In this document: piece by piece, positions 1,023 through 40,462 of the stretch
Position numbering within the stretch: the stretch's first letter is position 1
Layout of the letters: each line of letters starts with the position of its first letter
Source of the DNA: Bacilli bacterium
Lineage (GTDB): Bacteria > Bacillota_I > Bacilli_A > RF39 > UBA660
Length of the DNA stretch: 64,000 bases
Assembly (NCBI GenBank): GCA_017622175.1
Contig: JAGARQ010000038.1
Coordinates: forward strand, 4,510-68,509
Direction: 5' to 3'
Program-made: the position numbers and the translations under genes
Notes under the pieces: generated by a model
Told to the model about the DNA's origin: nothing
Database searches by the model: none
Seen by the model: only the letters and a program-made list of their open reading frames with translations

Positions 1023-2130
1023 TTCCTAGTTTTACTTTTACAGTTTTTTCCTTTGAGTCTCTTATAAATGTAATTTCTACTACATCACCAGCTTGATGTT
1101 GATATAATTCATATCTTAAGTATGCATAATCTTTTACTTCTTTTCCAGCTAGTTTAGTAATAACATCACCTTTTTTAAGTCCTGCTTCTTTGGCACCAGA
1201 GCCATCTACTGCATTTATTACAACTACACCTTGTGTAATTTTTTCATCTAAAATTATTCTGTTTCTATATAGTAATGACGTATCTGTTACGTTGGCCATT
1301 TCGATTCCTAAAAGTGGCCATTCTATTGTTTTTCCAGCTTCTAATGTTTTAACATGACTCATGGCATATTCAATTGGAATTGCGAATCCCATTCCTTCTA
1401 TTTGGTCATCAACTAGTTTTAATGAGCAAATTCCGATAACTTCACCATTTACATTTAGTAATGGTCCACCACTGTTTCCAGGATTAATTGATGCATCTAA
1501 TTGTAATACTCTCATAACCCAGTCATTACTTGAGGTATTTGATACACTTACTGATACCATTCTATCTTTTCCAGATAGTATACCAGATGTAACACTTCCT
1601 CTATAGTCATACCCCATTGGTGCACCAACAGTAAATACTGTATCACCTAAGCGCATATCTTCACTTTTTCCAATATTAGAAATTAAAGTTACTTTTTCTC
1701 TAGCTATTTGGATTACTGCTAGGTCTAGATATTCATCTCCACCTAGTACTTTTCCATCTATTTCTTCATCATTTGACATAACTAAAGTTATTTTATCTCC
1801 ACCTGATACAACATGATTATTTGTTAATAAATAACCATATTTGTCATCAGCTCTATAAACAAAGGCTGTACCTGTTGAAATAACTTGATCTTGTTTATAT
1901 GTTCTTACTAAGGCAGTTGCATCATATATTTTTTCTACTGATGCAGCTAAAGAACCTTTTTCATATACTTGTGTTTCGTTTTTTGTTACTATTGTTCCTC
2001 CACCTGTTGTACCAATAACTTCACTTATAATTGGTGTCCATTTAAGTAATGCAAACATTACTACTCCACCTATTACAAAGGAGAAAGTAACAATAAATAT
2101 CATTTTTAAAGTATCTTGTTTTTTTCTCAT
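1009..2130 (-). CDS. htrA: HtrA/DegP-family serine protease, N-terminal TM anchor and C-terminal PDZ domain
   Basis: Trypsin-like triad contexts TNNHVV, DLAV and GNSGGPL. PDZ-like tail GLKKGDVITKLAGKEV. RBS AAGGAG lies inside the upstream gene. Confidence 0.9.
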   Translation of the reverse strand: MRKKQDTLKMIFIVTFSFVIGGVVMFALLKWTPIISEVIGTTGGGTIVTKNETQVYEKGSLAASVEKIYDATALVRTYKQDQVISTGTAFVYRADDKYGYLLTNNHVVSGGDKITLVMSNDEEIDGKVLGGDEYLDLAVIQIAREKVTLISNIGKSEDMRLGDTVFTVGAPMGYDYRGSVTSGILSGKDRMVSVSVSNTSSNDWVMRVLQLDASINPGNSGGPLLNVNGEVIGICSLKLVDDQIEGMGFAIPIEYAMSHVKTLEAGKTIEWPLLGIEMANVTDTSLLYRNRIILDEKITQGVVVINAVDGSGAKEAGLKKGDVITKLAGKEVKDYAYLRYELYQHQAGDVVEITFIRDSKEKTVKVKLGKSSE

Positions 2131-3077
2131 TCGAGATCCGAACTCCTTTCAATTCTTGCTAGTTCTTTCCAGTTTGATGGGAACCCCATACGATTAAATA
2201 CTTTTTCTATCTTTATAGTATGTAAATTATAATTTAGTGTCTGAATGATATTTTCTAATTCCATTGTCATGTTTTTAAATTCTTCTGTTTGAAGCATTTG
2301 TTTCATAATAATTACTAATGCAAATAAATCATGTTTACCATAAATATATTCTCCTTCTTGTTTTGGAATATCTAATATTTTATGATAAATTGTATCATCA
2401 ATGGCTTTTTGAGTTTTATTTTCAAATAATATATCTTCATGAGCACATAAGTTACGATAGTTTGCTAATATAGGTAAGTATGTTTGGAAATCATCTGGTT
2501 CAATTCCGTATGTTCTAGCAATATCTCTTTGGTCTTCAGCTTTTAATACTGAGTACATTTCACTAACAATACCAAATGATAAGACTTTAACTAAGATCCA
2601 TAAAGGAATATATCCATAATTAGATACATAGTGTAGTGTCGCAGTATGTTGTGAACCATTAACACGAATTTGTCTTTTCATCTTTTTTAATAAATCATTT
2701 AGTTGGCGTTGCTTATCTGGATGTTGTGTAAAGTTTTTGGGTTTTAAGTAATCACGTTCACGATATCCATATTTTTTAGATAATTGATATGATGTTATTG
2801 ATTTTAAGTTATTTTCAATTACTAATAAATACTTAAATAAGACATTTCTAATTGATCTATCAAATAGGAAAAGACTATATAGTTCTTCAAATGTTGTTCC
2901 ATCTAGGTAGTCATTATCTTCTCTTCTTTTCATAAATAAATGACGATATCCATTTAAAAAGAAATAATTTTCACGTAAAAGTACTATTTTTGCGTACTCT
3001 TCATCATTGATAATCATACCTCTATGTTTTAAGATTTCGATTTGTTCATCTAAGTTTTTAAATTGTTTCCCTATCAT
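2127..3077 (-). CDS. Abi_2 (AbiD/AbiF-like) abortive-infection family protein
   Basis: Family pattern EQIEILKHRGMII..., NYFFLNGYRHLF, LFDRSIRN, IPLWILVKVLSFG, YRNLCAHED. ATG 3077 follows AGGTGAG. The TGA stop overlaps the htrA ATG (ATGA). Confidence 0.8.
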   Translation of the reverse strand: MIGKQFKNLDEQIEILKHRGMIINDEEYAKIVLLRENYFFLNGYRHLFMKRREDNDYLDGTTFEELYSLFLFDRSIRNVLFKYLLVIENNLKSITSYQLSKKYGYRERDYLKPKNFTQHPDKQRQLNDLLKKMKRQIRVNGSQHTATLHYVSNYGYIPLWILVKVLSFGIVSEMYSVLKAEDQRDIARTYGIEPDDFQTYLPILANYRNLCAHEDILFENKTQKAIDDTIYHKILDIPKQEGEYIYGKHDLFALVIIMKQMLQTEEFKNMTMELENIIQTLNYNLHTIKIEKVFNRMGFPSNWKELARIERSSDLE

Positions 3078-3214
3078 TATTCTCACCTAGTATAAATTAT
3101 ATCATACTATTTAGAGAAAAAGTATGAAAAATTATGTGTTTTTTATGGTATAATTTAATTACCTCTTTTTTGAGGTTATAATGAGTATTAATATGTTACG
3201 AGGGAGGTAGTTTA

Positions 3215-4186
3215 ATGCCCGCAACAATTACGCATGCTTATTTTGCAAAAGATGTTTTTGATATCTTACCAAGTAATATTAAAAATATAATAGATTGTAG
3301 TAGAATTAAGATGTTTGGACAAAGTATGGATTCATTAATGTTTTATAATCTTTTTTCTATTTTACCAGGTAAAAAGATTAGACAATTTAATTATGATTTC
3401 CATAGATGCAAATCACAAGAATACTTTGTTAATTTAATAAATTTTATTAAAGACAATAATTTAAACGAAGATATGGATGTTTGTTCTTATTTAGCAGGAA
3501 TGATATGTCATTATGTACTTGATTCAAATATACATCCATATATAGTTTATAAGACTGGTGTTTTTGATAAGAAAAAGAAAAATACGTATAAGTATAATCA
3601 TGTTCATGATTTTATGGAAGCTTTTATTGATAATGATATGGTTAAAAGACGAGAAAAAGCAAATCCATATAAGTTTAGACTTGATCAATTTTGTTTTAAT
3701 ACTAGAGAATTTTCTGATAATTTAAATGCTGCTATAGACTATAGTTTTAAAGAAACTTTTTATATTGACAATATGAGTAGTATTTATTACAAATCATTAA
3801 AACAAATGAAGAATTGTCTTTATTTATTTAGAAGAGATCCTTATGGAGTAAAAAAATTCTTTTATAAAGTATTAGACACTTTTACTACAAAAAGAATATT
3901 TAGATTTGAGACTGTGTCATATCACGTTGATTTAGAAGATAAACATAATTATTTAAATTCTAATCATAAGTTGTGGAGAAATCCTACTAGTTATAATATG
4001 ACAAGTACTGAATCGTTTGTTGATTTATATTTAAAATCAATAAAAACTGCTAAAGTATTGATTTGTGCTAGTTTTGATTATATTAATAATAAGGATATTG
4101 AGCTTGAAAAAATATTTACTAATATGAGTTATGTTACTGGAAGAGATTGTGATTTAGATGTAGAACTAAAATATTTTGAATTTTAG
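3215..4186 (+). CDS. Zinc-dependent phospholipase C-like family protein (function uncertain)
   Basis: N-terminal ITHAYFAKDVF and internal HYVLDSNIHPY His/Asp-rich motifs resemble the Zn-PLC/P1-nuclease-like fold. RBS GAGGGAGG. Confidence 0.45.
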   Translation: MPATITHAYFAKDVFDILPSNIKNIIDCSRIKMFGQSMDSLMFYNLFSILPGKKIRQFNYDFHRCKSQEYFVNLINFIKDNNLNEDMDVCSYLAGMICHYVLDSNIHPYIVYKTGVFDKKKKNTYKYNHVHDFMEAFIDNDMVKRREKANPYKFRLDQFCFNTREFSDNLNAAIDYSFKETFYIDNMSSIYYKSLKQMKNCLYLFRRDPYGVKKFFYKVLDTFTTKRIFRFETVSYHVDLEDKHNYLNSNHKLWRNPTSYNMTSTESFVDLYLKSIKTAKVLICASFDYINNKDIELEKIFTNMSYVTGRDCDLDVELKYFEF

Positions 4187-4241
4187 TTCTTTTTTTGTAT
4201 AGTTTATTTTTTATTATTCATACTATTATCAGGTGATACTT

Positions 4242-5312
4242 ATGTTTTATAAATATGAGATTAAAAATAATGGTGTTGAAGATATTTTATACTTATACTT
4301 ATCTATGAGTTTTGAGTTTTCTAGGGAATTAGTTCTTAATTCTAAGGATGATGATTTATGTAGAAGAACTAAGAATTTTATTAGAAATAATAATATTAAT
4401 TATAATGGTAGAAAAGTTTATTTAGTTATAGATGGTATTGTTGTTAAGACTTTGGATATTGCTAAAGAAAGCAATCCCATTGAGATTTTAAAAGATAGTC
4501 TTTATTATTCTAATGAACATTTTTTGGTTAATACTAAATTACAAGATGATAGTATTATTGAACTTCCATTAAAAGAATATTTACTTGGTGTTTTAGCTAA
4601 TAATACAATGATTGGTCTTGATATTGAGGTTATAAAAGCTGTTTGTATTTTATATAGAACTTATGCATTTCTTATGATGAAGAAAAATAAGGTTATTGAT
4701 ATTACTAATAGTTTTGCTTTATACAAGCCTATTTCATATTTTAAGTTAGTATGGACTACTGGATATGATGATATATTAGAATTACTTAATAAAGCAATCA
4801 AAGAGACTGATTGTCTCTTTGTAACTTATAACGAAGAGTATATTTTACCATTTATACATTATTCTAATACTGGTAGAACTTTTTATAATAGAGAGTATGA
4901 ATATCTAAGCTCTGTTAAAAGTTTATGGGATTTAGAATCTCCTTACTACGTTGATGTTAAAACTTATAATTATGATGATTTAAGTAATTTATTAGGGTTT
5001 AATATTTCTGTTAATTCTAAATTTAATATTATTGATGTTGATAGTAGAGATTATGTTAGAAAATTAAGTATTGATGATAAAATATTCTCTTCTGAAGAAT
5101 TTAAAAGTTTATTTGGATTAAAGTCTATGAATATTAATATTATTGTTAATAAAGATGAGTTAAAGATCATTAGCAAGGGTTATGGCAATGGTTATGGTCT
5201 TAGTTTATATGGAGCTAATGAAATGGCTATTAATGGCTGTAGTTTTGCTAATATTTTGAAGTATTACTTTCCTAAAATTAGTATTAATAAATATATAAAA
5301 GAACTTTCGTAA
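4242..5312 (+). CDS. SpoIID/LytB-domain protein (atypical)
   Basis: LKEYLLGVLANNTM...IKAVCILYRTYAF and C-terminal GYGNGYGLSLYGANEMA...ILKYYFP match the SpoIID domain pattern. ATG 4242 follows AGGTGAT. Confidence 0.7.
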   Translation: MFYKYEIKNNGVEDILYLYLSMSFEFSRELVLNSKDDDLCRRTKNFIRNNNINYNGRKVYLVIDGIVVKTLDIAKESNPIEILKDSLYYSNEHFLVNTKLQDDSIIELPLKEYLLGVLANNTMIGLDIEVIKAVCILYRTYAFLMMKKNKVIDITNSFALYKPISYFKLVWTTGYDDILELLNKAIKETDCLFVTYNEEYILPFIHYSNTGRTFYNREYEYLSSVKSLWDLESPYYVDVKTYNYDDLSNLLGFNISVNSKFNIIDVDSRDYVRKLSIDDKIFSSEEFKSLFGLKSMNINIIVNKDELKIISKGYGNGYGLSLYGANEMAINGCSFANILKYYFPKISINKYIKELS

Positions 5313-5335
5313 TGAAAGTTCTTTATTTATTTTAT
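5297..5335. terminator. Bidirectional terminator between the spoIID-like gene and the essC operon
   Basis: Perfect inverted repeat aaagaactttc/gaaagttcttt, with A-run and T-run flanks. Confidence 0.7.
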
Positions 5336-5545
5336 TTTTGATTTTAATGGTTTTAGTACGGCATCAGCATCTTTGTAAATATCTACTGTTGATTTTAAAA
5401 ATGTTGAATACCAATCTACGTTAGAGATAAATGTTTGTAGCATTCCAGCATCTTGCTTTTTAGCAAGTTTATCAACTACATCAGCATTTTCTGCTAATTC
5501 TTTAGCAAATTGAAGTATTTCTTCATATGTAAATTTTCCTATCAT
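5327..5545 (-). CDS. Small helical protein, last gene of essC operon (possible T7SS substrate or chaperone)
   Basis: 72 aa with no TM. Its start overlaps the upstream ORF stop (ATGA). No WXG motif is recognisable. Confidence 0.55.
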   Translation of the reverse strand: MIGKFTYEEILQFAKELAENADVVDKLAKKQDAGMLQTFISNVDWYSTFLKSTVDIYKDADAVLKPLKSKIK

Positions 5546-5802
5546 TCTTCAATTGCCCCCGTTTCCTCATCATCATCTTCTAAGGTAAGGTCTGCAGCAG
5601 GTGCTGGTGTTTGTGCAGGTGCTGGAGTAGATTTTGGAGCTTGTGTATTAAATAGTTTAGCTGCTTCTACAACGGTTGTTTTTGACTCTTCAATACTATC
5701 TGCTATGTTTATATTATCTTGGTCTTTCCAACCAGCTTTTATTTTGGCAGTTATTTCATATATTTTATTAACAGCCATAACAAATTGATTATAATCAGAC
5801 AT
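5542..5802 (-). CDS. Small protein with helical N-terminus, Pro/Ala-rich linker and acidic tail (possible T7SS substrate)
   Basis: 86 aa, begins 9 nt after yukD. KAGWKDQD is not a canonical WXG. C-terminus is PAPAQTPAPAADLTLEDDDEETGAIEE. Confidence 0.55.
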   Translation of the reverse strand: MSDYNQFVMAVNKIYEITAKIKAGWKDQDNINIADSIEESKTTVVEAAKLFNTQAPKSTPAPAQTPAPAADLTLEDDDEETGAIEE

Positions 5803-5811
5803 AGTTACCTC

Positions 5812-6069
5812 CTATATTAAGATTATTCTTGAACCATTTTTTAAATCAGTTTCTCTAACATTTTTATTTACATCATATATTTGACCTGTTTCCTTACTAT
5901 AGAAATTAGTGTCTAATTTCATTTCGTAAGCTCCTTCGGTTATTTCTACTAAAGCTTGTTCAATTAATTTTTTGATTGTTCCTATTCTTTTATTTATAGG
6001 AATATATAAATCATATGATTTTTCAATTAGTGGAATTTCTAGTTCTATTAATATTTTATTTTTATTCAT
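5812..6069 (-). CDS. esaB: YukD/EsaB ubiquitin-like type VII secretion protein
   Basis: 85 aa with a beta-grasp-like pattern ending LKNGSRIILI. It starts 11 nt downstream of the essC stop. Confidence 0.75.
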   Translation of the reverse strand: MNKNKILIELEIPLIEKSYDLYIPINKRIGTIKKLIEQALVEITEGAYEMKLDTNFYSKETGQIYDVNKNVRETDLKNGSRIILI

Positions 6070-6080
6070 ATTACTATCTC

Positions 6081-9000
6081 CTATTCATTTGAAATAAATT
6101 TAATTAAAGTAGCTTTACCTTTCTTAATAACATAACCGAATTTTGGATCAATCTCAGCACGAAGTGTTCTGGCATTTGTTGTAACTTTAAGAGTGAATTG
6201 GTTAGCAATACCATTTCCAATCCAGATTCCTGCTGATAGGTCAATACTTGCTTTGTACCAAGCTTCATAACTGATTGATTTAATTTGATCAATAGTTTCT
6301 ACCATAATAAAGCGAATTGTTCCTAATGAACTTGAATTTTGTATTGCTAAAGTAAAGTTTCCTTTTTCTAGAGCTGTCATTTTTTGGAATAATGAGTTTA
6401 GTCCAACAATCATACACACTACTTCGTCAGGAGTATTATTTGCTTTTTTAGCATTACATATATCAATTACTTTAGTTACTACATCTTTACATGTACCACT
6501 ACCATATGTAATTGTTTCTTCTGCAAATGTTGTTCCATTTAACGCATTTGCTGCATCCAAGATAATACATTGTGTATTTGGAACTTTAACAACTGCTCTA
6601 GCAATTCCATGTAGGAATCCAGGAAGAGATGTAACATCTTCTCCAGTAATGTTGTAAATGTAAGAGTCTTTTAAGTTGATTGTTGCAATCTCTAAAGATT
6701 CTTTTTCTACTCCTACTGGGATTGTTCTTAAGTTTCCAAGTACTTCTGCAACTTCTTCTTGACCAATTGTTTCTGGTAATATTGGTACTTTCTTAGCTTT
6801 GTAAGTACAAATTTCTGCTAATTTTGTACAGATTATTCTAATATAATCTGACATTTTTTCTTCCTTGTATGGATATGCTGTTTGGAATTCATAAATTGCG
6901 TCTAGTGCAATCATACCACGACCAAATACTTTTGAAGGTTCTTTCTTTCTAACTCCTGGAAGAACACTTGCATAGTCTGATGGGTCATTGAATTGTAATA
7001 CAACATTTTGACGGAAGTTTTGTCTAATACGATATCTTACTGTATTTGGACCATTTGTTGTGAACATAAATACTACTCCGTATTTTAAACAATCACGAGT
7101 AATTTGTCCTAAGATTTCTTCATAATCACCATAAGTTTCCATAAATGCTTCTACATTGTTGATTGCAACAATGATTAATGGAAGTTGTTTTCCTCCATGA
7201 TTAATATAGAAATCGAATGATCCATTGTAATCTACAAATAGACGTTTACGTTCTTCGATGATTTTTGTAATCATCTTAAATAAATTATCAATTTTTTCAT
7301 TATCTGCAGCAAGTAATACTTCTCCAACATGTGGTGCTTTTTTGAACATAGTCATTGTTTCTGCACCAAAGTCTAAGATGTAGAAGTTTACTTCTGATGA
7401 ATCATGAGTAGTTATTGTAGAATAAATAATACTTGTTAGCATTAATTCTTTTCCACTACCACCGGATCCAAAGATAATAGCATTTCCATCTCTTGAAAGC
7501 GGAAGTGTTAATAAGTGTTGTTGTTGGTTATCTGGGTCATCATATTCTCCGATAACTGGGTTAATATCATTTTTCTTAATTTGATAGTTATATTTTTTCT
7601 TTAATTCTTCAACATAAATTGTATCTGGAATCTTATCTAACCATAATTGTTCAATTTCAATGTTTTCAGCTTTTGCTTCATCAACTATGTATTGAATGAT
7701 ACTTGTGATTTCTTCTCCTTTTGCTTCTACAACAACATCATCTTGTTTTGTATCTAGGTTTTTAATTACGTTTCCAACATTATCAATAATGTTAATTGAT
7801 TGGTCAACTTTCTTTTTACGTTTTTCTGTTGGATAGTATTTAGCACCTGCCCATGCAGCTTGTCCCATTGCGAATAATTCGTTATAACCTACTTGTAAGT
7901 AGAAACGACCTGCTTCTTTTAAGTTGGCTGCGTCTGGTACTCTAATCATGTCGTTACTATCTGCTTTATCTTGAACTTTTAAACAAACACGGAATTTTGA
8001 GTTTGACCAAATTTGTTCATTAACTACTCCGGCTGGTTTTTGTGTTGCTAGGATTAAGTGAACTCCTAGGGAACGTCCGATACGGGCAGTTGAAATTAAT
8101 TGTTCCATGAATTCTGGTCTTTGCGCCTTTAATTCGGCGAACTCATCACTTATGATAAATAAATGTGAAATTGGTTTATCTACTAAACCTTTACGATATA
8201 ATCCTTGATATTTATAAATATCAATAGTACTTTCATTTAATTTATCTCTTGCTTCATTAAACATTCTTTGACGTTTACGAAGTTCTGATTGAATTGATGC
8301 TAAGGAACGGTTCATTTCATTTGTATCTAAGTTGGTAATTGTTCCTGCTAAGTGAGGAAGTTTCATTCCTGTTTCTCTGTTTTCAAAAGCTCCTGTTAAA
8401 CCTCCACCTTTATAGTCGATAAGTACGAATGATACTTCGTATGGATGGTAGTTAAGAGCCATTGACATAATGTAACTAATGATAAACTCTGATTTACCTG
8501 AACCTGTCATACCAGCGATAAGTCCGTGAGGTCCGTGGAATTTTTCATGTAAATCTAGTTTAAATAGTTCTCTTGTCTTATCTACTCCAACTGGTGCTTG
8601 TAATGACTTAGTTGGATCATTTTGTTTCCATCTATTTAAGATATTTAATTGTTCTACCATACCTACATTGTACATTTCTAGGAATGTAAGTGCATTTGGT
8701 AGAGATTGATTTTCTTTTGCAATATCAATAGGAATATTTGCTAAGATTTTACAACATTCAAACATATTTAGTGTTGGATCAAAATCTGCTAAGAATTCTT
8801 TTTGTTTATTTGAAACTAATTCGTTTTCAAATACCCCTGATTTCTTATCTCCAATACTTACGAATGTTTTACATTCATTTGGAATGTTAATTAATCTTGG
8901 ACTTACTACGATTAAACTGAAACCATAGTTAACATTTGATTCAGCAACGTCTTTAATAATTTCAATATCTCTAATACCTTTATAGTCGTCTGTAAAAATT

Positions 9001-10664
9001 ACGTAATATGGTTGATGATGTCTGTAGTCTAAACCACTTTGTTCCATCTTACCATTATTATCTTTAAACTTTCTTGCTTGGAAAGATTTTTCTAAAGTAA
9101 GTGATATTTCTTTTGCCTCGTCTAAGTTAGTGGCGAAGTATCTTGTACTCCTATCATTACTCCAAATATGTGGGGCTACTTTTAGATATTCCCAATATGG
9201 AGCATTCTTTTCATTTGTAAATACTACTAATTTTAAATCTTCATAACTATGGTAAGCTAACATTTGAAGAACTAAACCTTCAATAAATTGACGTTTGTTA
9301 GCAGATGTACCAATAATTGCTGAAATATTTTTTTGAACAAATGATAGTGATACAGGAACATTTTCAAGCATTCTTGATTCTGCTCCTAATTTGTATACTT
9401 CTTTTAATAATTCATCTGTTTCAAGTGAGAATCTTTCTTCTGGGAAACTTACATTACCAAATAATGGTGTTGTACCAATACCTAGTCTTAAGTCTAAGAA
9501 ATCTTCTTGGTCAATTTCTCTTTCCCATAGGTTTCTCTTTTTACCGTAAATAATATCTTTTGTCGCTGATAAAGGAAGATAGTTATCAATTAAAATTTGA
9601 CGTTGAATCTTCATTTCAGCTTGAATTTTTTCACGTTTTTGTTCTACGTATTCATTATATTTTTTCAAACGTTCTTTTTCACGTTTTTTACGTTGTCTTT
9701 TTTGATAGTTTTGAGACATTATTGGCCAAACTATCATTGTACACATCATTGCTCCTGATGTTAATAATGTTGATGCTACATCTTTAATATCAACGGAACC
9801 ATTGATTACGCTCATAAAAGCACTTAATCCAGTTGATAAAGACATCATAGCCATAGTCATCATTGGCCCCAAAGTATAAATTAGTGGAGTCTTATCTTCT
9901 GCTTCTTTTCCTGGAGGTGGATCAATTCCAATATTTACTTCTTCAATTCTTGTTTTGAATCTTGGTGCACGATAGAAGTAATCTTCTTCTTTAAAGAATT
10001 CTATACTTTCTTCATCTGGATTATCTTCAACAGTTTGTGTTTGTACAAGTGGTCTTTCAATATCAAATAATCCTCTATTAAAGTTAACATAGTTTCCAAT
10101 TGTATTAATTACAAGTGATTGGTCCATTACAATAATCTTTAGACCCATTATAAATATAATATCTCCATATTCAAGAGTTTGTGTTGTTACTGCTACGTTA
10201 TTTACGTATGTTCCATATTTACTATTTAAATCTTGAATAACCCATGTACCACCACTATATATTAATCTTGCTTGTTGTTGTGATACAAGTGGATATGCAT
10301 AGCTAATATGAGCATTAGCATCATTACCTATTATAATTTCACCTTGGGCTTTTAATCTAAGTTTAAGTGTTGTCTTCTCTGTACTTGGTGAACAATATAA
10401 AATAACGTATTCATTATCTGTATTAATTTTTAAAAAATATAAGCTATATTCTTGTAAAATGGCAGAATCAATTTCGTGATCTCCATTCATAATTTTTGTT
10501 TCGAAGTCACTTTTGATTTTCCATTGTCCATTATCTTCTTCTACGTTAATTAAGTTTCTTACATTACCGAGATAATCGTTGTCTGTGATCCAATAGTTTC
10601 CGGCAACTTTTGTTGGTAATGTAAAATTATATATTTTGCTTTTTTTAATCAATCTTACGATCAC
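6081..10664 (-). CDS. essC: EssC/YukB FtsK-SpoIIIE family type VII secretion ATPase
   Basis: N-terminal FHA-like region (GTWVIQDLNSKYGTYVNN), two TM helices, then P-loop domains (GMTGSGKSEF with SDEFAEL; GSGGSGKE). GTG start lies 6 nt after GGGGTGA. Confidence 0.92.
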   Translation of the reverse strand: MIVRLIKKSKIYNFTLPTKVAGNYWITDNDYLGNVRNLINVEEDNGQWKIKSDFETKIMNGDHEIDSAILQEYSLYFLKINTDNEYVILYCSPSTEKTTLKLRLKAQGEIIIGNDANAHISYAYPLVSQQQARLIYSGGTWVIQDLNSKYGTYVNNVAVTTQTLEYGDIIFIMGLKIIVMDQSLVINTIGNYVNFNRGLFDIERPLVQTQTVEDNPDEESIEFFKEEDYFYRAPRFKTRIEEVNIGIDPPPGKEAEDKTPLIYTLGPMMTMAMMSLSTGLSAFMSVINGSVDIKDVASTLLTSGAMMCTMIVWPIMSQNYQKRQRKKREKERLKKYNEYVEQKREKIQAEMKIQRQILIDNYLPLSATKDIIYGKKRNLWEREIDQEDFLDLRLGIGTTPLFGNVSFPEERFSLETDELLKEVYKLGAESRMLENVPVSLSFVQKNISAIIGTSANKRQFIEGLVLQMLAYHSYEDLKLVVFTNEKNAPYWEYLKVAPHIWSNDRSTRYFATNLDEAKEISLTLEKSFQARKFKDNNGKMEQSGLDYRHHQPYYVIFTDDYKGIRDIEIIKDVAESNVNYGFSLIVVSPRLINIPNECKTFVSIGDKKSGVFENELVSNKQKEFLADFDPTLNMFECCKILANIPIDIAKENQSLPNALTFLEMYNVGMVEQLNILNRWKQNDPTKSLQAPVGVDKTRELFKLDLHEKFHGPHGLIAGMTGSGKSEFIISYIMSMALNYHPYEVSFVLIDYKGGGLTGAFENRETGMKLPHLAGTITNLDTNEMNRSLASIQSELRKRQRMFNEARDKLNESTIDIYKYQGLYRKGLVDKPISHLFIISDEFAELKAQRPEFMEQLISTARIGRSLGVHLILATQKPAGVVNEQIWSNSKFRVCLKVQDKADSNDMIRVPDAANLKEAGRFYLQVGYNELFAMGQAAWAGAKYYPTEKRKKKVDQSINIIDNVGNVIKNLDTKQDDVVVEAKGEEITSIIQYIVDEAKAENIEIEQLWLDKIPDTIYVEELKKKYNYQIKKNDINPVIGEYDDPDNQQQHLLTLPLSRDGNAIIFGSGGSGKELMLTSIIYSTITTHDSSEVNFYILDFGAETMTMFKKAPHVGEVLLAADNEKIDNLFKMITKIIEERKRLFVDYNGSFDFYINHGGKQLPLIIVAINNVEAFMETYGDYEEILGQITRDCLKYGVVFMFTTNGPNTVRYRIRQNFRQNVVLQFNDPSDYASVLPGVRKKEPSKVFGRGMIALDAIYEFQTAYPYKEEKMSDYIRIICTKLAEICTYKAKKVPILPETIGQEEVAEVLGNLRTIPVGVEKESLEIATINLKDSYIYNITGEDVTSLPGFLHGIARAVVKVPNTQCIILDAANALNGTTFAEETITYGSGTCKDVVTKVIDICNAKKANNTPDEVVCMIVGLNSLFQKMTALEKGNFTLAIQNSSSLGTIRFIMVETIDQIKSISYEAWYKASIDLSAGIWIGNGIANQFTLKVTTNARTLRAEIDPKFGYVIKKGKATLIKFISNE

Positions 10665-10702
10665 TTAAGATCACCCCAGTTATTATTCCTATTCTATATG
10701 TA

Positions 10703-10731
10703 ATTATATATGTTTTTCAATTTTTTTACAA
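10703..10731 (-). promoter_or_regulatory. Sigma-A type promoter of essC operon (TTGTAA-17 nt-TATAAT)
   Basis: Hexamers read on the minus strand at 10726-10731 and 10703-10708. Confidence 0.6.
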
Positions 10732-10770
10732 CATTATTTTACTTAATTTGCTAAAAGAATTTTTTGTAAT

Positions 10771-11433
10771 TTATCTTTCAAGATATAATTTGTCTTGAGC
10801 CTCTAAATAAATACCATATAAATCCTTCTTAGGGCATATAAATATTAGTTTTTTATTATCTACTGGTATGTCCTGCTCTTGTTTTTCAGGATTATCTGGT
10901 TGTAGTGGTTCTTCTATATCTTTTTCTATTTTTTTAAAATTTATATTTGCTGAGTCAATTATAGTTATGGAATCATCTATCCATAGACATTCTTCTGGTT
11001 TCTTTTTATTATTAATTGAAAAAGAACCACCATTATTTTTGTACCATCCAGTTCCAGTAAATTTTCCTTTTCCACATTCTATATGGCAGTGATTTCCTGT
11101 TGTTTGTCCTTTTGTACCTTCTGTATAGAAAGGTTCATTCTGATTTATTCTTTTACCAACAAATAAATCACTTACATCGTTAGAGTGTGCAAACATTATA
11201 GTCATATAATCAATTGTTCCATCTGGATATTCTACTGGTTCAGTACTTTCAAGCCATACTTCGTTAGCGTCTTGAGGATATATTTTTTTAATTATACCAG
11301 TAAAAGGAGCGTTAATTGTAGAAATAGATGAATCAATGCTTGCCTCATCTATTGCATAACTATCTATGTGAGAACCTATATTGTATCCTTGAGTAATTCT
11401 CATATATTTACTGGGATATATTGGTTTTTCCAT
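10771..11433 (-). CDS. M23/LytM-family peptidoglycan peptidase, signal-less (endolysin-like)
   Basis: INAPFTGIIKKIY, MFAHSNDVS..VGKRINQNEPF and GQTTGNHCHIE match the M23 strand/HxH pattern. No signal peptide. RBS AGGAGG. The start lies inside the holin 3' end. Confidence 0.65.
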   Translation of the reverse strand: MEKPIYPSKYMRITQGYNIGSHIDSYAIDEASIDSSISTINAPFTGIIKKIYPQDANEVWLESTEPVEYPDGTIDYMTIMFAHSNDVSDLFVGKRINQNEPFYTEGTKGQTTGNHCHIECGKGKFTGTGWYKNNGGSFSINNKKKPEECLWIDDSITIIDSANINFKKIEKDIEEPLQPDNPEKQEQDIPVDNKKLIFICPKKDLYGIYLEAQDKLYLER

Positions 11434-11770
11434 TATTATCCTCCTTATTTATTATGTTTTCTTTGGAGATAGTGACTTTATTTCTATTTATTATTTCACC
11501 ATATGATTGAAGTTTTCCTTCTAATGTTTTGTATAGTGTATCTGCTCCTAGAAAAGAAAATAATCCCACCCATAAACTTGTTGGGAATGTAACGTTAGTA
11601 AATGACATACAAAATACAATGCCTATGGATAAATTTACTATTAATGAATATATTGGAATTAATTTTTGTGTTGGTAAATGTCTTTTTGTTTTTTGAATAA
11701 ACGTACACGTAAAAACACTTAGAGCTATGGAAACGACTAATAATTCTTGTAAATATTCTATTTTTAACAT
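11408..11770 (-). CDS. Phage holin, Listeria A118 Hol118-like family
   Basis: 120 aa with 3 hydrophobic segments and a charged tail. Aligns by eye with Hol118 (ELLV..F[VI]Q..KKT..P..S.LI..G...W.G...G..L[FY]...K.YGE). Overlaps the lysin gene by 26 nt. Confidence 0.7.
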   Translation of the reverse strand: MLKIEYLQELLVVSIALSVFTCTFIQKTKRHLPTQKLIPIYSLIVNLSIGIVFCMSFTNVTFPTSLWVGLFSFLGADTLYKTLEGKLQSYGEIINRNKVTISKENIINKEDNNGKTNISQ

Positions 11771-11794
11771 ATATTACCTCCTTATAGTAATATA

Positions 11795-11818
11795 TGAAAA
11801 AAAGGACTTTTAGTCCTT
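11795..11818 (-). terminator. Intrinsic terminator after the 145-aa gene
   Basis: aaggac/gtcctt stem followed by a U-run on the minus RNA. It overlaps the stop codon. Confidence 0.6.
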
Positions 11819-12254
11819 ATTTTTTTGATATTGATAAAATGGTTATGACATTTATAATTGCAAATAATTTATCTGATGTTGAGATATTAATAGTCCATTT
11901 TTCAGGGTCATCTAATAAGTCATTTTTCATACTTACAATTATTTCTTCTTTTTCATTTTTTACAGCAAAGTCAGAATATGTAATATCTGATGAAATATGC
12001 CAATTCTTATTAATAAGAGTATATCCTTTTGGGGTTTTATTATCAGATGTTATTTCATCTACTAATGTTCCATTCATATATAACTTATATTTTTTCTTAG
12101 AGAATAAATTATATTTAACTTCTGCTAATTGTAACTCATTTTCATCATATATGTAATAATTAAATCCCTTGTGTTTACATATGTATAGAACTTTTTCATT
12201 TTTGTCTTTTATGATATATTTTCCTAATCCATCTTGAATTAATATTAAATCCAT
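11817..12254 (-). CDS. Hypothetical protein; weak resemblance to LURP-one/tubby-C-like (YxjI-type) fold
   Basis: 145 aa with an alternating beta-strand-like pattern. Own promoter TTGATT-18-TATACT and RBS AGGTGAT. Confidence 0.5.
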   Translation of the reverse strand: MDLILIQDGLGKYIIKDKNEKVLYICKHKGFNYYIYDENELQLAEVKYNLFSKKKYKLYMNGTLVDEITSDNKTPKGYTLINKNWHISSDITYSDFAVKNEKEEIIVSMKNDLLDDPEKWTINISTSDKLFAIINVITILSISKK

Positions 12255-12328
12255 ATAATCACCTACTATATTGAGTATAGCACTTGTTTTCTAGTGCAAT
12301 CAAATAAAAATAACATTGTTTATGTAAA

Positions 12329-12898
12329 CTAATTGTCTTGCTTTTTTCTAAATATAGATTTAATAAATTTCTTAACCCCTGTTTCTTTTTTAGGATTTTC
12401 TTTTATTTCCACAAGTTCTTCCGAACTTTCAGTAGTTGGACTTAGGACTAATTCAACTCCTTTAGGAAGTGGAAATGATAATTGTCCTCTTTTTAACATA
12501 ATTATGTCTCTAATCGTAAATATTTTAAAATCCATTAATTCTAAGTCCATTGTTACTTGTTCATATTGTTGTCTTCTATTTTCTACAGGCATAATATTAA
12601 ATTTATATATTTTTTCATTTTTAGCATCTCCAATACTTTGCCCTAATTCTATTAGTTGTTCTTCTGTTAGATCTTTAACTTCATTATAATCAACAATCCA
12701 GTCAATTCCTTTAAAAAACTCTATGTCTTCTGGCTTCGAAAATTCTATAAACTCATATCTATTACTATCATCTATTATTGTAATTCCTTTTCCAAAAACT
12801 TGCATAAAAATAGATGCAGGGATAGATAGTCCCGAACTATTTAAATATGCCATATCATTTTTTTGAACGTACATTTTATTATCCTTTAATATTTTCAT
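12329..12898 (-). CDS. Hypothetical protein
   Basis: 189 aa. RBS GAGGAGG and an extended -10 (TGATATAAT) upstream. No motif recognised. Confidence 0.6.
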   Translation of the reverse strand: MKILKDNKMYVQKNDMAYLNSSGLSIPASIFMQVFGKGITIIDDSNRYEFIEFSKPEDIEFFKGIDWIVDYNEVKDLTEEQLIELGQSIGDAKNEKIYKFNIMPVENRRQQYEQVTMDLELMDFKIFTIRDIIMLKRGQLSFPLPKGVELVLSPTTESSEELVEIKENPKKETGVKKFIKSIFRKKQDN

Positions 12899-12942
12899 AA
12901 TGAACCTCCTCTTTTATGTTCTATATTATATCATACTTTGTT

Positions 12943-14709
12943 TTATTTCTTATATATTTTCACAAGTTCCTGTTGAAATTCTTCTTTTGCTCTTGGATCT
13001 TGGGTATCCGATAGAAATGAATCTATAGTTCCATCTGTAAATAATGTGATATACCAGTCTTTATTACATATGGTTTGTTGTTCTTGATGTTTTGCCATTT
13101 CTTGATAAAATGTGAACCCTTCACTTGTTTGACTTCTTTGAAAGCGTAACGAGATTATTCTTTTTTCTATATCAGGATTAAAAGAGAATTTATTTGTTGC
13201 TAATACTAGTTCTCTTTTATCAAAATATCTTTTTTCTGGTATATATAATTTTATATCTGAAATGTTTTTTTCAGGAGCAGTATCTAACAAGCATTGATAA
13301 TTGGAAATACCATTGTAATAATTATTTCCATTTTCTAATATAGGGCTTACTAAAAATGGCAATATGTTGCTGTTATAGTTAGATACATTAGAGTTTGTTG
13401 CTCCTATGATTGTTGCTACTATTTCATCACCGTTTTTATTCATATAATCCATAATTTGTTTTAATATTGATTTTGTTAAATCATATAATTTTTTCCCTGT
13501 CAGTTCTGGTGGAACCCATTTACTCGTTTCTATTCCTTGAGCAATTATTGTGTTTCCATTTCTCATAAGTAGAACCATTGCATAATCTTTATATTCTTTA
13601 GTTGAAAAGCTTAATATGCGCATATGTTCGCTATCAAGAAATTGTGAGAAAAGAATTGATGCATCACCATTTATTCTAAAGCAGTTACCGGAACGGTATC
13701 CATGTGTTAGATTTCTTGGCTCACTTAATGATAGTAATTCCGGTATTATTTCATTTTGAGTTTTTAGTTCAATTTGTGGGATAGATGATTTATACTTATT
13801 TCTTAATTTTTTTGTATATGCTTTTGTATTTATTGCAATGACTTCATCTTCTTCTGTTTGTTGTGCAGCATATTTATGATAATAAGACGACAACATGTCT
13901 TCTCTTATTTCTCCTGTAATTTCAGGTGTTGTTGGATCTTGTGTTAAAAATCTTTCTTTTAATAATTGTTGTAGCGATTCTTGTTTGAACTTTGTACCAA
14001 TTTTATGAATAAAATATGGTAGATTATTATAAAAATAGTCAAAATTTATAAATAGTTCTATAAATTTTCCAGCTAGCATTTGTCTAATTGGATTATTAAA
14101 GTCTGTTTTGTTTCCAAATAAATAGTTTTTTAAAATGTCTTGTTCTGTCTCTGACATGTTGTTTAATTCTATTTTTTTTACAAAATAATGAAGTTGTTCA
14201 TAACTAACATTTCCATATTTTTGATTAATTAGTTCCAATGTATTTTCATAACCTAAACATGTATATAGTTTATATGCAACTTCTTGATATTCTTGTTCCT
14301 GGTATGTAGGTCTTCTTCTTAATTTCCATTGCAATTCTTCTTCTATTTTGATATCTAAAATATTTTTATCTTGTGGTAGATTATGTAATAGTTTAACTAT
14401 TTTATTAATTCTTTTCTTGGGAATCTGAAAGTATGTTTGTGGTGAAAGATATTGTTCTATTTCTGTTGTTGATTCGTTATTATTTTTTAAAGCACTTATT
14501 AATTTGTATATATTACCTTTCATTATTGTTTTCAATATACTTTTTTTGTTTAATTTTTGTAAAACTAATTCATAAAATTCTATTGGCATATTATTTATTC
14601 CGTAAAATGACTCAATAAAATTCTCCATTCTCTTAGTTGATGGACTTTTCTTTATCTGTAATAGTTCTTTTAAACATTTTAGTTTTTCTATTATTGTTTT
14701 TTCTTTCAT
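12943..14709 (-). CDS. Hypothetical protein (588 aa, soluble)
   Basis: Long uninterrupted ORF. Promoter TTGAAA-17-TATTAT and RBS GGGGAA. No motif recognised. Confidence 0.65.
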   Translation of the reverse strand: MKEKTIIEKLKCLKELLQIKKSPSTKRMENFIESFYGINNMPIEFYELVLQKLNKKSILKTIMKGNIYKLISALKNNNESTTEIEQYLSPQTYFQIPKKRINKIVKLLHNLPQDKNILDIKIEEELQWKLRRRPTYQEQEYQEVAYKLYTCLGYENTLELINQKYGNVSYEQLHYFVKKIELNNMSETEQDILKNYLFGNKTDFNNPIRQMLAGKFIELFINFDYFYNNLPYFIHKIGTKFKQESLQQLLKERFLTQDPTTPEITGEIREDMLSSYYHKYAAQQTEEDEVIAINTKAYTKKLRNKYKSSIPQIELKTQNEIIPELLSLSEPRNLTHGYRSGNCFRINGDASILFSQFLDSEHMRILSFSTKEYKDYAMVLLMRNGNTIIAQGIETSKWVPPELTGKKLYDLTKSILKQIMDYMNKNGDEIVATIIGATNSNVSNYNSNILPFLVSPILENGNNYYNGISNYQCLLDTAPEKNISDIKLYIPEKRYFDKRELVLATNKFSFNPDIEKRIISLRFQRSQTSEGFTFYQEMAKHQEQQTICNKDWYITLFTDGTIDSFLSDTQDPRAKEEFQQELVKIYKK

Positions 14710-14773
14710 ATTATTCCCCGTTAATTTTCTTTATATAATAACAGATTTTCTTTGTATTTTCAATAAATTAGTG

Positions 14774-14807
14774 CAGCAAAAAAGCTTGGATATTTCTCCA
14801 AGCTTTT
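14774..14807 (-). terminator. Intrinsic terminator after rpsI
   Basis: aaaagcttgga/tccaagctttt inverted repeat followed by a U-run on the minus RNA. Confidence 0.75.
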
Positions 14808-14820
14808 GTAAAACTGTATA

Positions 14821-15246
14821 TTAACGTTTTGAGAATTGTGGAGCACGACGTGCTTTTTTAAGTCCTGGTTTTTTACGTTCTTTCTTACGAGAATCTCTTG
14901 TAATAAATCCAGCAACTTTTAATGTTTTTCTGAAACTATTTTCTGAATCAGCTGGTGTTGTTTTATCATAGTCTAATAATGCTTTAGTAATTCCGTGACG
15001 GATAGCTCCAGTTTGTCCAGAGAATCCTCCACCTTTTACTTGTGCATCTACGTCAAACATTTCTCTTGTGTTTGTAACATCAAGTGGTTGACATAAGTCC
15101 ATTACTAATACTTCGAAAGGTAAGTAGTCATGAACATCTTTACCATTAACAGTAATTTTTCCTGTTCCTGGAGTTAATGTAACGCGAGCTACACTAGTTT
15201 TTCTGTGTCCAGTACCAGTATAAACATTTTTCTTTTCTTTTGCCAT
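14821..15246 (-). CDS. rpsI: 30S ribosomal protein S9
   Basis: [12 protein letters not shown] ... [10 protein letters not shown]-terminus. Downstream of rplM. Confidence 0.97.
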
Positions 15247-15258
15247 ACTTAAACCCTC

Positions 15259-15690
15259 CTACTTAACTTCAAGCACTTCTGGTTTTTGTGCTTCATGTTT
15301 ATGTTCATTTCCAGCGTATACGAATAATTTCTTATACATTTGTCTTCCTAATCTGTTATGTGGAAGCATACCTTTTACAGCTCTTTCCATCATTTCAGTT
15401 GGATATTGTTCTCTCATTACTTTAGCAGTTCTTTCTCTTAATCCACCTTGATACATAGAATGGTCATAGTACATTTTGTTTTCTAATTTGTTACCAGTTA
15501 GATTAACTTTTTCTGCATTTACAATAATGATGTTATCTCCGCAATCGATATGTGGAGTATAAGTTGGTTTGTGTTTTCCACGTAGGTATTTTGCAGCTAA
15601 GCTTGCAACACGACCTAAAGATTGTCCTTCAGCATCGATTACATACCATTTACGTTCTACAGTTTCTTTTTTTTGCATATAACTTGTCAT
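15259..15690 (-). CDS. rplM: 50S ribosomal protein L13
   Basis: Conserved L13 N-terminus [17 protein letters not shown] and GMLP motif. Confidence 0.97.
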
Positions 15691-15710
15691 ATTTTTTTCT
15701 CCTTTTACTT

Positions 15711-15737
15711 AAATCAGACTTTCCCAGGGTCTAATTT
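15711..15737 (-). promoter_or_regulatory. Hairpin in rplM 5' leader (candidate r-protein autoregulatory element)
   Basis: Minus RNA AAAUUAGAC-CCUGGGAAA-GUCUGAUUU forms a 9-bp stem just upstream of the RBS. Confidence 0.35.
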
Positions 15738-15767
15738 ATGTGGGGATATTCGAATGTACCGATTATG

Positions 15768-15796
15768 ATTATACTAAAAAAAGTATTAAATTGCAA
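15768..15796 (-). promoter_or_regulatory. Sigma-A promoter of rplM-rpsI (TTGCAA-17 nt-TATAAT)
   Basis: Hexamers at 15791-15796 and 15768-15773 on the minus strand. Confidence 0.7.
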
Positions 15797-15845
15797 TAGT
15801 TTTTATTACGATTTATATTGTTTTTCGGTACTTTTCACATAAATT

Positions 15846-16214
15846 TTACTTTTTTGTATATGGTTGTTTTGCGTCTCCTAATTCTGGATATTCGCTAGTT
15901 TCAAAATCAACTTGTTTTTCATCTAACATTGCAGATAATTCTGCTAATTTGTCATCACTTAATGATTCAACATAAGCTTGTGCATTATGAACATTTTTTA
16001 AGGTATTATTTAAACTTTGTTGTTGAAATCCATAAGTTGCTGTTGTAGCAGATGAACAAATTGTTGTTCCTAATGTCGATCTCTTTTTATCTACTAGAAT
16101 TGCTGTTTTATTTCCTTTTTCATCTGTCTCATATCTTACTGCTGTTTTTGCTGTTAATCCTGTTGCTCCTACAACTGTTGCTGTTTCACATAAAATTGTT
16201 GTTGATTGTATCAT
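15846..16214 (-). CDS. Small protein with two TTI-x-C motifs and a conserved acidic helical C-terminus (paralog of 17052-17393)
   Basis: ATG 16214 lies about 10 nt after GGGAGGG and 1 nt after the upstream gene stop. STTILCETATVVG and GTTICSSATTATYG, then AQAYVESLSDDKLAELSAMLDEK. Confidence 0.65.
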   Translation of the reverse strand: MIQSTTILCETATVVGATGLTAKTAVRYETDEKGNKTAILVDKKRSTLGTTICSSATTATYGFQQQSLNNTLKNVHNAQAYVESLSDDKLAELSAMLDEKQVDFETSEYPELGDAKQPYTKK

Positions 16215-16215
16215 A

Positions 16216-16986
16216 TTATTTTTTCCCTCCCGAACCTTTTGTATCAGTATCTTGTACTGACGATTGTCTATTTGCACCTAGTGTTACTTGAACTAGTTTT
16301 CTTAATTGTTCTAACTCTTCTTTGGTTTGTATGCTATCGATTACTTGCGTTAATGTTGGTATATCTTCTGTTTTTTCCATACTTCTACTTATTACTGCAC
16401 CAGCTTCAGAATATTGTTCAACATTTTTCTTGGTTCTTCTTTCTTCCAATTTTTTCATTGTTTCTTCTCGCATTTTATAACGATAGATATTACAGTTTTG
16501 AATGTTTACACATTGAAAGTTTATAAACGATGAACCTACTTCTAAAGCAAGGAATGGTATAACTACTGTTGGCCATATACCAAAGGCCGCAGCTATAGTT
16601 AATCCAGTAATCGCAATTGCATTCTTTATTAAGCCCTTCATATGTATATCTTTATTCCAATTTAAATAGTGTAATATTTCTGTTGGCTTATTTGGATCTA
16701 TATGATAATTTCGATTTTCTTCTCTATTAAATTCTTTTCTCATTAACATTTTTTGTCTACGATAGTGATCTATTATATGTTTTCTTTCTTCTGGTGTCTT
16801 TGCATTTTTCAGTTCTTTTTTTCTTTTTCGATCACAAATTTTATCATACCACTCAATGTATTTTGGAATAAATTTTTTTATAAATTTGTACTTTAACTCT
16901 TCTACTTTAAAAACTACTTTTTGGAACTTATTAGCTCCTAGTTTTTCGCAGAGTTTAATTTTCTTTTTATAATCAACTGCTTCCAT
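16216..16986 (-). CDS. Membrane protein with central 2-TM hairpin; weak resemblance to CrtO-like acyltransferase family
   Basis: Basic N-terminal region and a hydrophobic core GLIKNAIAITGLTIAAAFGIWPTVVIPFLALEVG. INFQCVNIQNCNIYRYK faintly resembles the QRYNR motif. Confidence 0.55.
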   Translation of the reverse strand: MEAVDYKKKIKLCEKLGANKFQKVVFKVEELKYKFIKKFIPKYIEWYDKICDRKRKKELKNAKTPEERKHIIDHYRRQKMLMRKEFNREENRNYHIDPNKPTEILHYLNWNKDIHMKGLIKNAIAITGLTIAAAFGIWPTVVIPFLALEVGSSFINFQCVNIQNCNIYRYKMREETMKKLEERRTKKNVEQYSEAGAVISRSMEKTEDIPTLTQVIDSIQTKEELEQLRKLVQVTLGANRQSSVQDTDTKGSGGKK

Positions 16987-17032: not shown

Positions 17033-17061
17033 ACACAAAAAAAAGCAACTATTACTGTTGC
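17033..17061 (-). terminator. Intrinsic terminator after the 113-aa gene
   Basis: gcaac/gttgc stem followed by a run of 8 U on the minus RNA. The stop codon sits in the loop. Confidence 0.55.
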
Positions 17062-17393
17062 TTAGGTCCTTCTTTTATGTAGACTTTGACAGGAGATTCA
17101 ATTGATTTTTTTGCTGATTCTTCTGTAAATGTAAACTCTTTTTCTTCAAGTAAATTTTCTAAAGTAATAAGTTCTTCTGTTGACATTGATTCAACATAAC
17201 TTTGTGCATCTCTTACTAACATGACATTGTCTGGTACTTGAATGTTATTTAAGGCCGTTGTTACAGAACATACAATTGTAGTGCTTTTCATGTCATCATC
17301 GACACTGTCAAGACATGTAGTAGTACTATATAATTCTGTTCCTAATGTAGCTAAATCTATTGAATTATATATAAGTGTTTCTAATGCTGTCAT
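17052..17393 (-). CDS. Small protein with two STT-x-C motifs and a conserved acidic helical C-terminus (paralog of 15846-16214)
   Basis: STTTCLDSV and STTIVCSVTTALNN, then AQSYVESMSTEELITLENLLEEK. RBS AAGGGGGAA. Extended -10 TGTTATAAT upstream. Confidence 0.65.
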   Translation of the reverse strand: MTALETLIYNSIDLATLGTELYSTTTCLDSVDDDMKSTTIVCSVTTALNNIQVPDNVMLVRDAQSYVESMSTEELITLENLLEEKEFTFTEESAKKSIESPVKVYIKEGPKQQ

Positions 17394-39584: not shown

Positions 39585-39606
39585 CATAAAAAAAGACCGA
39601 AGTCTT
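39585..39606 (-). terminator. Intrinsic terminator after spo0A
   Basis: Minus RNA AAGAC-UUCG-GUCUU followed by UUUUUU. It overlaps the stop codon. Confidence 0.55.
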
Positions 39607-40381: not shown

Positions 40382-40462
40382 TTTTCTCTCCTTATCATAC
40401 TGCACGCATTTTAATTATATAATAATTCGGCAATTTACGATAGAGAAAAAAAGAACAAGTTC

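Follow-up and report, generated by a model that had tools for sequence, protein, structure and literature searches.

We analysed a stretch of 64,000 nucleotides (nt) from a Bacilli bacterium (assembly GCA_017622175.1, contig JAGARQ010000038.1, positions 4,510 to 68,509 of the forward strand; hereafter the window), and in it two overlapping genes on the minus strand, the first for a predicted phage-type holin and the second for a predicted M23 peptidase. The pair is under purifying selection and occupies one fixed place on the chromosome in at least 80 species, and the promoter motif in front of it resembles those read by sigma-K, a sigma factor of late sporulation. We suggest that it is an anciently domesticated phage lysis cassette, a core gene pair used for lysis of the mother cell late in sporulation; as judged from sequence, the chances of this suggestion being right appear to us about even. 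The species set consisted of 80 fetched loci (at most 81 counted) from a clade of uncultured gut Bacilli, and this locus was the region read in each relative's genome.

A conserved pair of phage-type lysis genes

The 120-amino-acid (aa) product of the upstream gene is, by its sequence, a predicted holin of the Hol118 family, as the original prediction had claimed. It aligned nearly end to end with Pfam family PF06946 (residues 5-92, profile positions 2-90 of 93; E 1.8e-4), at 22.2 bits, 0.2 bits under the gathering cutoff of 22.4, and it matched the holin family phrog_1299 at 1.2e-6; among its orthologues, 16 of 26 matched PF06946 at E <= 0.01 (best E 5.8e-7). Two segments, with their centres near residues 16 and 48, are strongly hydrophobic and a third, at residues 62-80, less so, and a charged tail follows (residues 82-120; six K/R and five D/E); this is the three-segment and charged-tail layout of a Hol118-type holin. 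In Hol118 a second in-frame Met yields an inhibitor form of the protein, a trait of Hol118 itself and not of the whole family. Such a dual start was not found in the window holin, whose N-terminus reads MLKIEYLQELLVV and which has no second Met in its first 54 residues. An exact-protein look-up of the holin returned near-identical contigs only.

The 220-aa product of the downstream gene is, judging from its sequence and an AlphaFold 2 (AF2) model, a divergent M23 endopeptidase of the phi29 gp13 type, made in the cytoplasm. Searches of Pfam (up to E 0.1) and of NCBIfam gave no family, and an exact-protein look-up gave no match; phrog_9066 was matched at 2e-9. The AF2 model (predicted local distance difference test score, pLDDT, 75.8) matched the M23 domain of phi29 gp13 (3csq) with E 1.6e-9 and TMq 0.65, and also StM23, lysostaphin, EnpA, LytM and others with E from 1e-4 to 1e-3; SpoIIQ structures were among the fold matches as well. 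A profile of the peptidase family aligned with residues 170-328 of 3csq, the whole gp13 M23 domain, at E 7.8e-7. Residues H22, D29, H83, H115 and H117 are invariant in 26 orthologues, and the motif GQTTGNHCHIE begins at residue 109. The first metal motif has the form H-x6-D instead of HxxxD, and the same form is present in phi29 gp13 (SHKGTLCID, profile alignment). On the Kyte-Doolittle scale the whole protein peaks at 0.95 and its first 35 aa at 0.39; it contains no hydrophobic segment and hence no signal peptide. The catalytic domain (residues 1-170) is followed by a variable Pro/Glu-rich linker and by a C-terminal motif of about 25 aa, KLIFxCPKxDLYGIYLxxxxKLYLE (10771-10845 in the window), which is conserved in all chromosomal orthologues; the AF2 model gives these last residues no secondary structure. 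The motif might dock the peptidase to the holin or to the wall.

The two open reading frames (ORFs) share 26 nt (11408-11433), which confirms the reported overlap of a holin gene with the gene of a signal-less M23 enzyme. The ribosome-binding site of the peptidase gene, GGAGG at 11444..11440, lies within the holin coding sequence; the C-terminal ENIINKE of the holin is invariant across the family, and its codons double as this ribosome-binding site. The holin gene has its own GGAGG at 11781..11777.

Close relatives of the peptidase numbered 977 in the protein collection, and 153 species genomes encoded one. The genomes listed were all of uncultured gut Bacilli, under the labels Bacilli, Tenericutes, Mollicutes, 'Mycoplasma sp. 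CAG:877', 'Clostridium sp. CAG:417' and Ca. Onthousia. From the placement of CAG:877, CAG:417 and Ca. Onthousia we take the clade to be, probably, order RF39 of GTDB; NCBI taxonomy gives Bacilli incertae sedis only. Holin and peptidase genes were adjacent in essentially all 80 loci, always with rplM-rpsI on one side and, on the other, a block that holds spoIID-like, phospholipase C, Abi_2 and htrA genes. The immediate neighbours vary, with rpsI or lineage-specific ORFs upstream and zupT, essC or other genes downstream; no signal-less cargo gene was conserved beside the pair among the flanking genes of the fetched loci.

The holin ORF was intact in 80 of 81 loci and the peptidase ORF in all 81. 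Median pairwise ratios of non-synonymous to synonymous substitution rates (dN/dS), the check proposed for both genes at the outset, were 0.26 for the holin and 0.25 for the peptidase (about 0.25-0.30), similar to truA (0.21); rpsI gave 0.18 and rplM 0.10. The pair is thus under purifying selection at its fixed site in at least 80 species, and intact, syntenic ORFs with low dN/dS identify the two as conserved host genes and not as a prophage in decay. That it lies outside any prophage, as had been stated, was borne out by the flanking ORFs, for which no PHROG match was significant (E 0.08 or above in every case).

Relatives of both genes were found in phages. In curated phage records, a faecal microvirus and a Clostridium innocuum phage endolysin showed 33-38% identity to the catalytic domain of the peptidase, and Enterococcus phage tail lysins 26%. 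Two IMG/VR contigs, L088 and L089, carry tail genes followed by a holin of a different type and then by an M23 endolysin of 324-333 aa; the endolysins are 62% identical to the peptidase over residues 1-171 and 56% over residues 1-167, respectively. Their last ~25 residues (L088 6925-7002; L089 6890-6975) share KLIF...K.D.Y.I.L....KL(Y/F) with the peptidase (segment E 3e-5), and they have an SH3-like/coiled middle region which the chromosomal peptidase does not have. The holin of another phage contig, L090, is 49% identical to the window holin and adjoins an amidase endolysin. We conclude from these relatives that the cassette derives from phage lysis genes, of which the wall-binding part was lost and the remainder fixed in the host. 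Near the tail or lysis genes, L090 (3024-4160) and L089 (10298-11317) each have a reverse-transcriptase-like ORF; these might represent a diversity-generating retroelement.

Compared with a phage lysis cassette, be it that of Listeria phage A118 with Hol118 or those of L088 and L089, the window pair has the same build, a small holin with three transmembrane segments upstream of an overlapping signal-less endolysin gene. It differs in being fixed at one chromosomal site across the clade, in having an enzyme without the SH3-like/coiled middle and in what appears to be a sporulation-type promoter of the host. Phi29 gp13, the best match of the peptidase in both structure and sequence, has the same arrangement of H-x6-D and HxH; gp13, however, is a virion tail protein with an extra N-terminal lysozyme-like domain and acts from outside at infection, whereas here the M23 domain stands alone and is proposed to act from inside.

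Putative promoter of the cassette

Upstream of the holin gene we saw the motif tGTnnCa-N16-gCATAtAnTA in 75 of the 80 species, at a distance of 24-26 nt from the start codon in 64 of these 75. Within the -10 element, CATA and the final TA never vary; the fifth base is T in most cases, the sixth is nearly always A and the seventh is free. The -35 block, 16 nt above it, has G at -21 in 57%, T at -20 in 79%, A at -18 in 35% and C at -17 in 74% of cases. The window has 'AC' of the -35 element at 11814..11813, a spacer of 16 nt and the -10 element CATATATTA at 11796..11788. A scan of the 2.8 Mb of fetched sequence for properly placed CATAnAnTA (before a ribosome-binding site and an ORF) found 93 sites, and 73 of them belonged to the holin gene.

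Mapped sigma-K promoters of Clostridioides difficile have aGTAACA at -35 and cATAtnnTA at -10. One of them serves CD1898, a sigma-K-dependent amidase proposed for mother-cell lysis; its -10 element, GCATATATTA, is identical to that of the window holin. Separate -35 matrices for sigma-K and sigma-E were built from mapped C. difficile promoters, with shuffled sequences as control. The holin -35 scored 2.09 with the sigma-K matrix (shuffled -1.53) and -0.15 with the sigma-E matrix (shuffled 0.03), and the spoIID-like gene of the same locus, which has a GTATA-N17-CATACTA promoter of sigma-E type conserved in about 30 species, scored -2.03 (shuffled -3.00) and 3.34 (shuffled 0.18), respectively. 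An earlier -10-anchored matrix favoured sigma-K over sigma-E in 62% of holin sequences; it was blurred by the variable spacing of the C. difficile promoters and was superseded by the -35 matrices. As far as sequence motifs can tell, two sporulation-type promoter classes are recognisable at this locus, with the late, sigma-K-like one at the holin. The cwlD-like gene has CATATAcTT at -10 and a -35 that fits neither matrix.

Other window genes use extended -10 promoters of the form TGnTATAAT. A sigma-A reading of the holin promoter was ranked low, as this promoter has neither the TG extension nor a TTGACA-like -35 as at other genes. At several other genes, for example p145 (the gene upstream of the cassette) and abi, the leader is likewise short and the -10 lies just a few bases ahead of the ribosome-binding site; the geometry of the holin promoter is therefore no objection to it. 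A hairpin with a T-run at the end of the upstream gene (p145 in the window) precedes the holin motif in the window and likewise, by eye, in many other species; in the window the holin -35 element lies within this terminator-like hairpin, which insulates the cassette from upstream transcription. Four candidate RNA runs were inspected over 5000-16000; their contigs were 82-116 kb long and their depth, which rose over rpsI/rplM and part of essC, did not follow gene boundaries, and we took them as DNA.

The window encodes Spo0A (TIGR02875, 275.8 bits; cutoff 200), so an organism labelled Bacilli, 'Mycoplasma' or 'Tenericutes' carries the master regulator of sporulation. It also encodes a protein with a SpoIID/LytB domain (best match spore_II_D, E 5e-41, below the equivalog cutoff). 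A published survey (PMC10868615) predicts RF39 bacteria to be walled (m-DAP type, with meso-diaminopimelic acid) and spore-forming, and predicts loss of most lyt/cwl hydrolases in the ancestor that RF39 had in common with RFN20 and ML615J-28.

The essC unit and other features of the locus

The original prediction had linked the pair to type VII (T7) secretion, as essC lies downstream of it in the window. The distances reported there are correct: the peptidase gene ends 39 nt before the essC -35 hexamer TTGTAA (10731..10726), and no terminator-like site was found between the two genes in the window. A conserved holin-lysin-essC adjacency across relatives was not found. We saw essC downstream of the pair in 41 loci, directly adjacent (a gap of <400 bp to the peptidase gene) in 7 of the 41, with a median gap of 970 bp. 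The genes in the larger gaps are unrelated ones, among them a cwlD-like amidase, a dCMP deaminase and regulators. A convergent ZIP/ZupT-like gene follows the peptidase in 70 loci (among L008-L085), whereas the window lineage has none at this place; the spoIID block comes after the pair with no essC between in 9 loci. In some of the directly adjacent relatives (L006, L023, L071) a terminator-like hairpin is seen by eye between peptidase and essC. The region upstream of the zupT-like gene also holds CATAnAnTA in a few species.

Upstream of essC, all 42 distinct sequences, from 42 species, share TTGTAA-N17-TATAAT, the promoter that had been noted in the window, and a conserved leader of about 40 nt (…TAGAATAGGAATAATAACTGGGGTGAT; loci L006-L084), whatever gene precedes. 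With its own conserved promoter of sigma-A type, essC appears to be an independent unit. Its adjacency to the cassette in the window is a derived, lineage-specific by-product of losing intervening genes of the zupT/cwlD type. The unit is minimal: after essC comes an 85-aa ORF, which we take by eye as EsaB/YukD-like (no family matched it), and then two small ORFs, one of 86 aa and a last one of 72 aa with a faint ESAT-6 match only; EssA, EssB and EsaA were not seen near essC.

In the window lineage only, three ORFs of 588, 189 and 145 aa, each with its own TGnTATAAT promoter, occupy the interval between rpsI and the holin gene; in 32 of 67 other species the holin gene is <400 bp from rpsI. Of the small ORFs of the truA-rplM interval, those of 113 and 143 aa are paralogues with a common motif, AQxYVESxSxxEL (E 6e-9, 39% identity over 56 aa); they matched no family and are present in close relatives; the 256-aa ORF between them was detected more widely in the clade. 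The Abi_2 gene (abortive-infection-like) was found in 50 loci and, with one exception, kept its synteny and an identity of 65-95% there, a conservation unusually core-like for a defence-type gene.

Table 1. Features of the locus in the window, with position, strand and basis of assignment
Feature	Position	Strand	Basis
truA, then three small ORFs without identity, upstream of rplM		-	
113-aa ORF	17052-17393	-	no family match
143-aa ORF	15846-16277	-	no family match
rplM	15259..15690	-	
rpsI	14821..15246	-	
Three ORFs (588/189/145 aa) between rpsI and holin	11817-14709	-	no family match
Terminator-like hairpin of upstream gene p145	11802..11818	-	
Putative holin promoter, sigma-K-like	11788..11814	-	conserved motif, match to mapped C. 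difficile sigma-K promoters
Predicted holin gene, 120 aa, Hol118/Phage_holin_5_1 family	11408..11770	-	
Translational-coupling region (ORF overlap and peptidase GGAGG)	11408..11444	-	read from sequence
Predicted peptidase gene, signal-less M23, phi29 gp13-type, 220 aa	10771..11433	-	
essC promoter, sigma-A-type, TTGTAA-17-TATAAT	10703..10731	-	
essC unit	5327-10731	-	
essC, 1527 aa, first gene of a separate unit	6081..10664	-	TIGR03928, 1020 bits
Bidirectional terminator, end of essC unit	5298-5324		
spoIID-like gene (upstream region 4150-4232)	4233-5312	+	spore_II_D
Abi_2 gene	2127-3086	-	
spo0A	39605-40405	-	TIGR02875

Proposed role and alternatives

In B. subtilis the mother cell is lysed by CwlC and CwlH, both under sigma-K control. 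How its membrane is breached for signal-less hydrolases such as CwlC is, to our knowledge, poorly understood, and we know of no holin-gated system of mother-cell lysis described before. If the promoter motif is read by sigma-K, both proteins would appear in the mother cell as sporulation ends. RNA polymerase with sigma-K would transcribe the pair, and the overlapping ribosome-binding site would allow holin and peptidase to be made together; the holin would permeabilise the mother-cell membrane, upon which the cytoplasmic M23 endopeptidase could reach the wall and cut peptide cross-links; the sporangium would lyse and the spore be released, a job done in B. subtilis by CwlC and CwlH. In proposed timing and purpose, and in a putative promoter of sigma-K type, the pair is like CwlC/CwlH and CD1898/CD2184 of C. 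difficile, hydrolases that depend on sigma-K and have been linked to mother-cell lysis; these, however, are amidases, not homologous to the M23 enzyme, and have been described without a partner holin. That an entire order of genome-reduced gut spore-formers recruited a phage cassette under sigma-K as a dedicated spore-release device is possible, and we lean slightly against this wider statement.

Several observations weigh against mother-cell lysis as the role. The -35 match is partial, with 'AC' in about a third of the sequences and C only in the others. The fetched loci contained no second conserved target of the holin motif that would point to a regulon. The -10 element includes TAnnnT, and a weak sigma-A promoter is thus conceivable. 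No sigK gene was seen in the locus region read, the organisms are uncultured and their sporulation is predicted only. The evidence for sigma-K consists of promoter motifs; the sequencing runs retrieved were all gut metagenomes, and the candidate RNA runs among them resembled DNA. Finally, in the window lineage, where no terminator intervenes, the cassette and essC might be co-transcribed.

The main alternative is a vegetative role, in which the holin gates the endopeptidase for wall turnover, cell separation, regulated autolysis or non-lytic release of a cytoplasmic cargo, as in 'type 10' secretion or with TcdE/TcdL. A core syntenic pair under purifying selection would fit such a role, a replacement autolysin would be useful after the predicted ancestral loss of most lyt/cwl hydrolases, and loss of the wall-binding domain could mean a tamed, local activity. 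The TAnnnT of the holin -10 would be compatible with a weak sigma-A promoter. This promoter, however, takes neither the TGnTATAAT nor the TTGTAA-N17-TATAAT form seen at other genes, it has an invariant CA before and A after TAnnnT as well as a sigma-K-like -35, and the varying neighbours of the pair include no conserved cargo gene; we regard a vegetative role as rather unlikely. The promoter of mother-cell type is shared by a further alternative, that holin and M23 enzyme act in another step of sporulation (engulfment, or remodelling of cortex or coat). Sigma-E and sigma-K -10 elements are similar, the M23-fold protein SpoIIQ, found among the fold matches, acts in sporulation, and spoIID-like and cwlD-like genes lie near the pair. 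We consider this improbable, as the holin -35 fits sigma-K and not sigma-E, which the spoIID-like gene does fit; the catalytic residues of the peptidase are all intact, in contrast to the degenerate M23 domain of SpoIIQ; and a Hol118-type holin with a signal-less endolysin was a lysis device in every phage context found.

The original prediction of a domesticated holin/lysin pair serving T7 export fared differently in its two parts. Domestication is supported by the 80-81 loci and a dN/dS of 0.25-0.30; the T7 link, with essC adjacent in 7 of 41 loci, is not. As an accessory of the T7 secretion system the pair would open wall or membrane for EssC-dependent export or release and be co-expressed with essC, which in the window lies next to it in the same orientation with no terminator between; there is also a precedent in EssH of S. 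aureus, a wall hydrolase serving T7 secretion. However, the two units are kept apart in most species by a convergent zupT-like gene or by several unrelated ones, the pair persists in 9 loci where essC is missing, the promoter classes differ, essC having its own sigma-A-type promoter in 42 of 42 species, and by eye terminator-like hairpins precede essC in some of the directly adjacent relatives. Adjacency to essC in one genome is no evidence of T7 function, and we see the accessory role as quite improbable. EssH, moreover, is a CHAP-domain enzyme that is itself secreted, not an M23 enzyme gated by a holin. Host-domesticated phage lysis parts do act in secretion as TcdE/TcdL of C. difficile and ChiW/ChiX of Serratia ('type 10'); unlike these systems and EssH, the window pair has no conserved adjacent cargo gene and no conserved linkage to essC. 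The other explanation offered at the outset, a functionless prophage remnant persisting by chance, could point to phage relatives of both genes amid non-phage flanking genes. It was rejected as refuted by the conservation data and retains hardly any probability: the ORFs are intact and syntenic at the same site in 80-81 species genomes with dN/dS about 0.25, the catalytic residues are invariant, and conservation extends to the promoter and to the coupling ribosome-binding site.

The locus offers a well-dated host capture of phage lysis genes: at least 80 species carry them at one and the same site, and the wall-binding domain is gone. If late mother-cell lysis is indeed its role, a late-sporulation holin would be a direct mechanistic answer, in one lineage, to the question of how the mother-cell membrane is breached, and the cassette would cleanly exemplify the rewiring of a phage lysis module to serve a developmental programme. 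It would also lend sequence-level support, beyond predictions from gene presence, to sporulation in RF39-type gut bacteria, which bears on the transmission of these abundant uncultured organisms between hosts.

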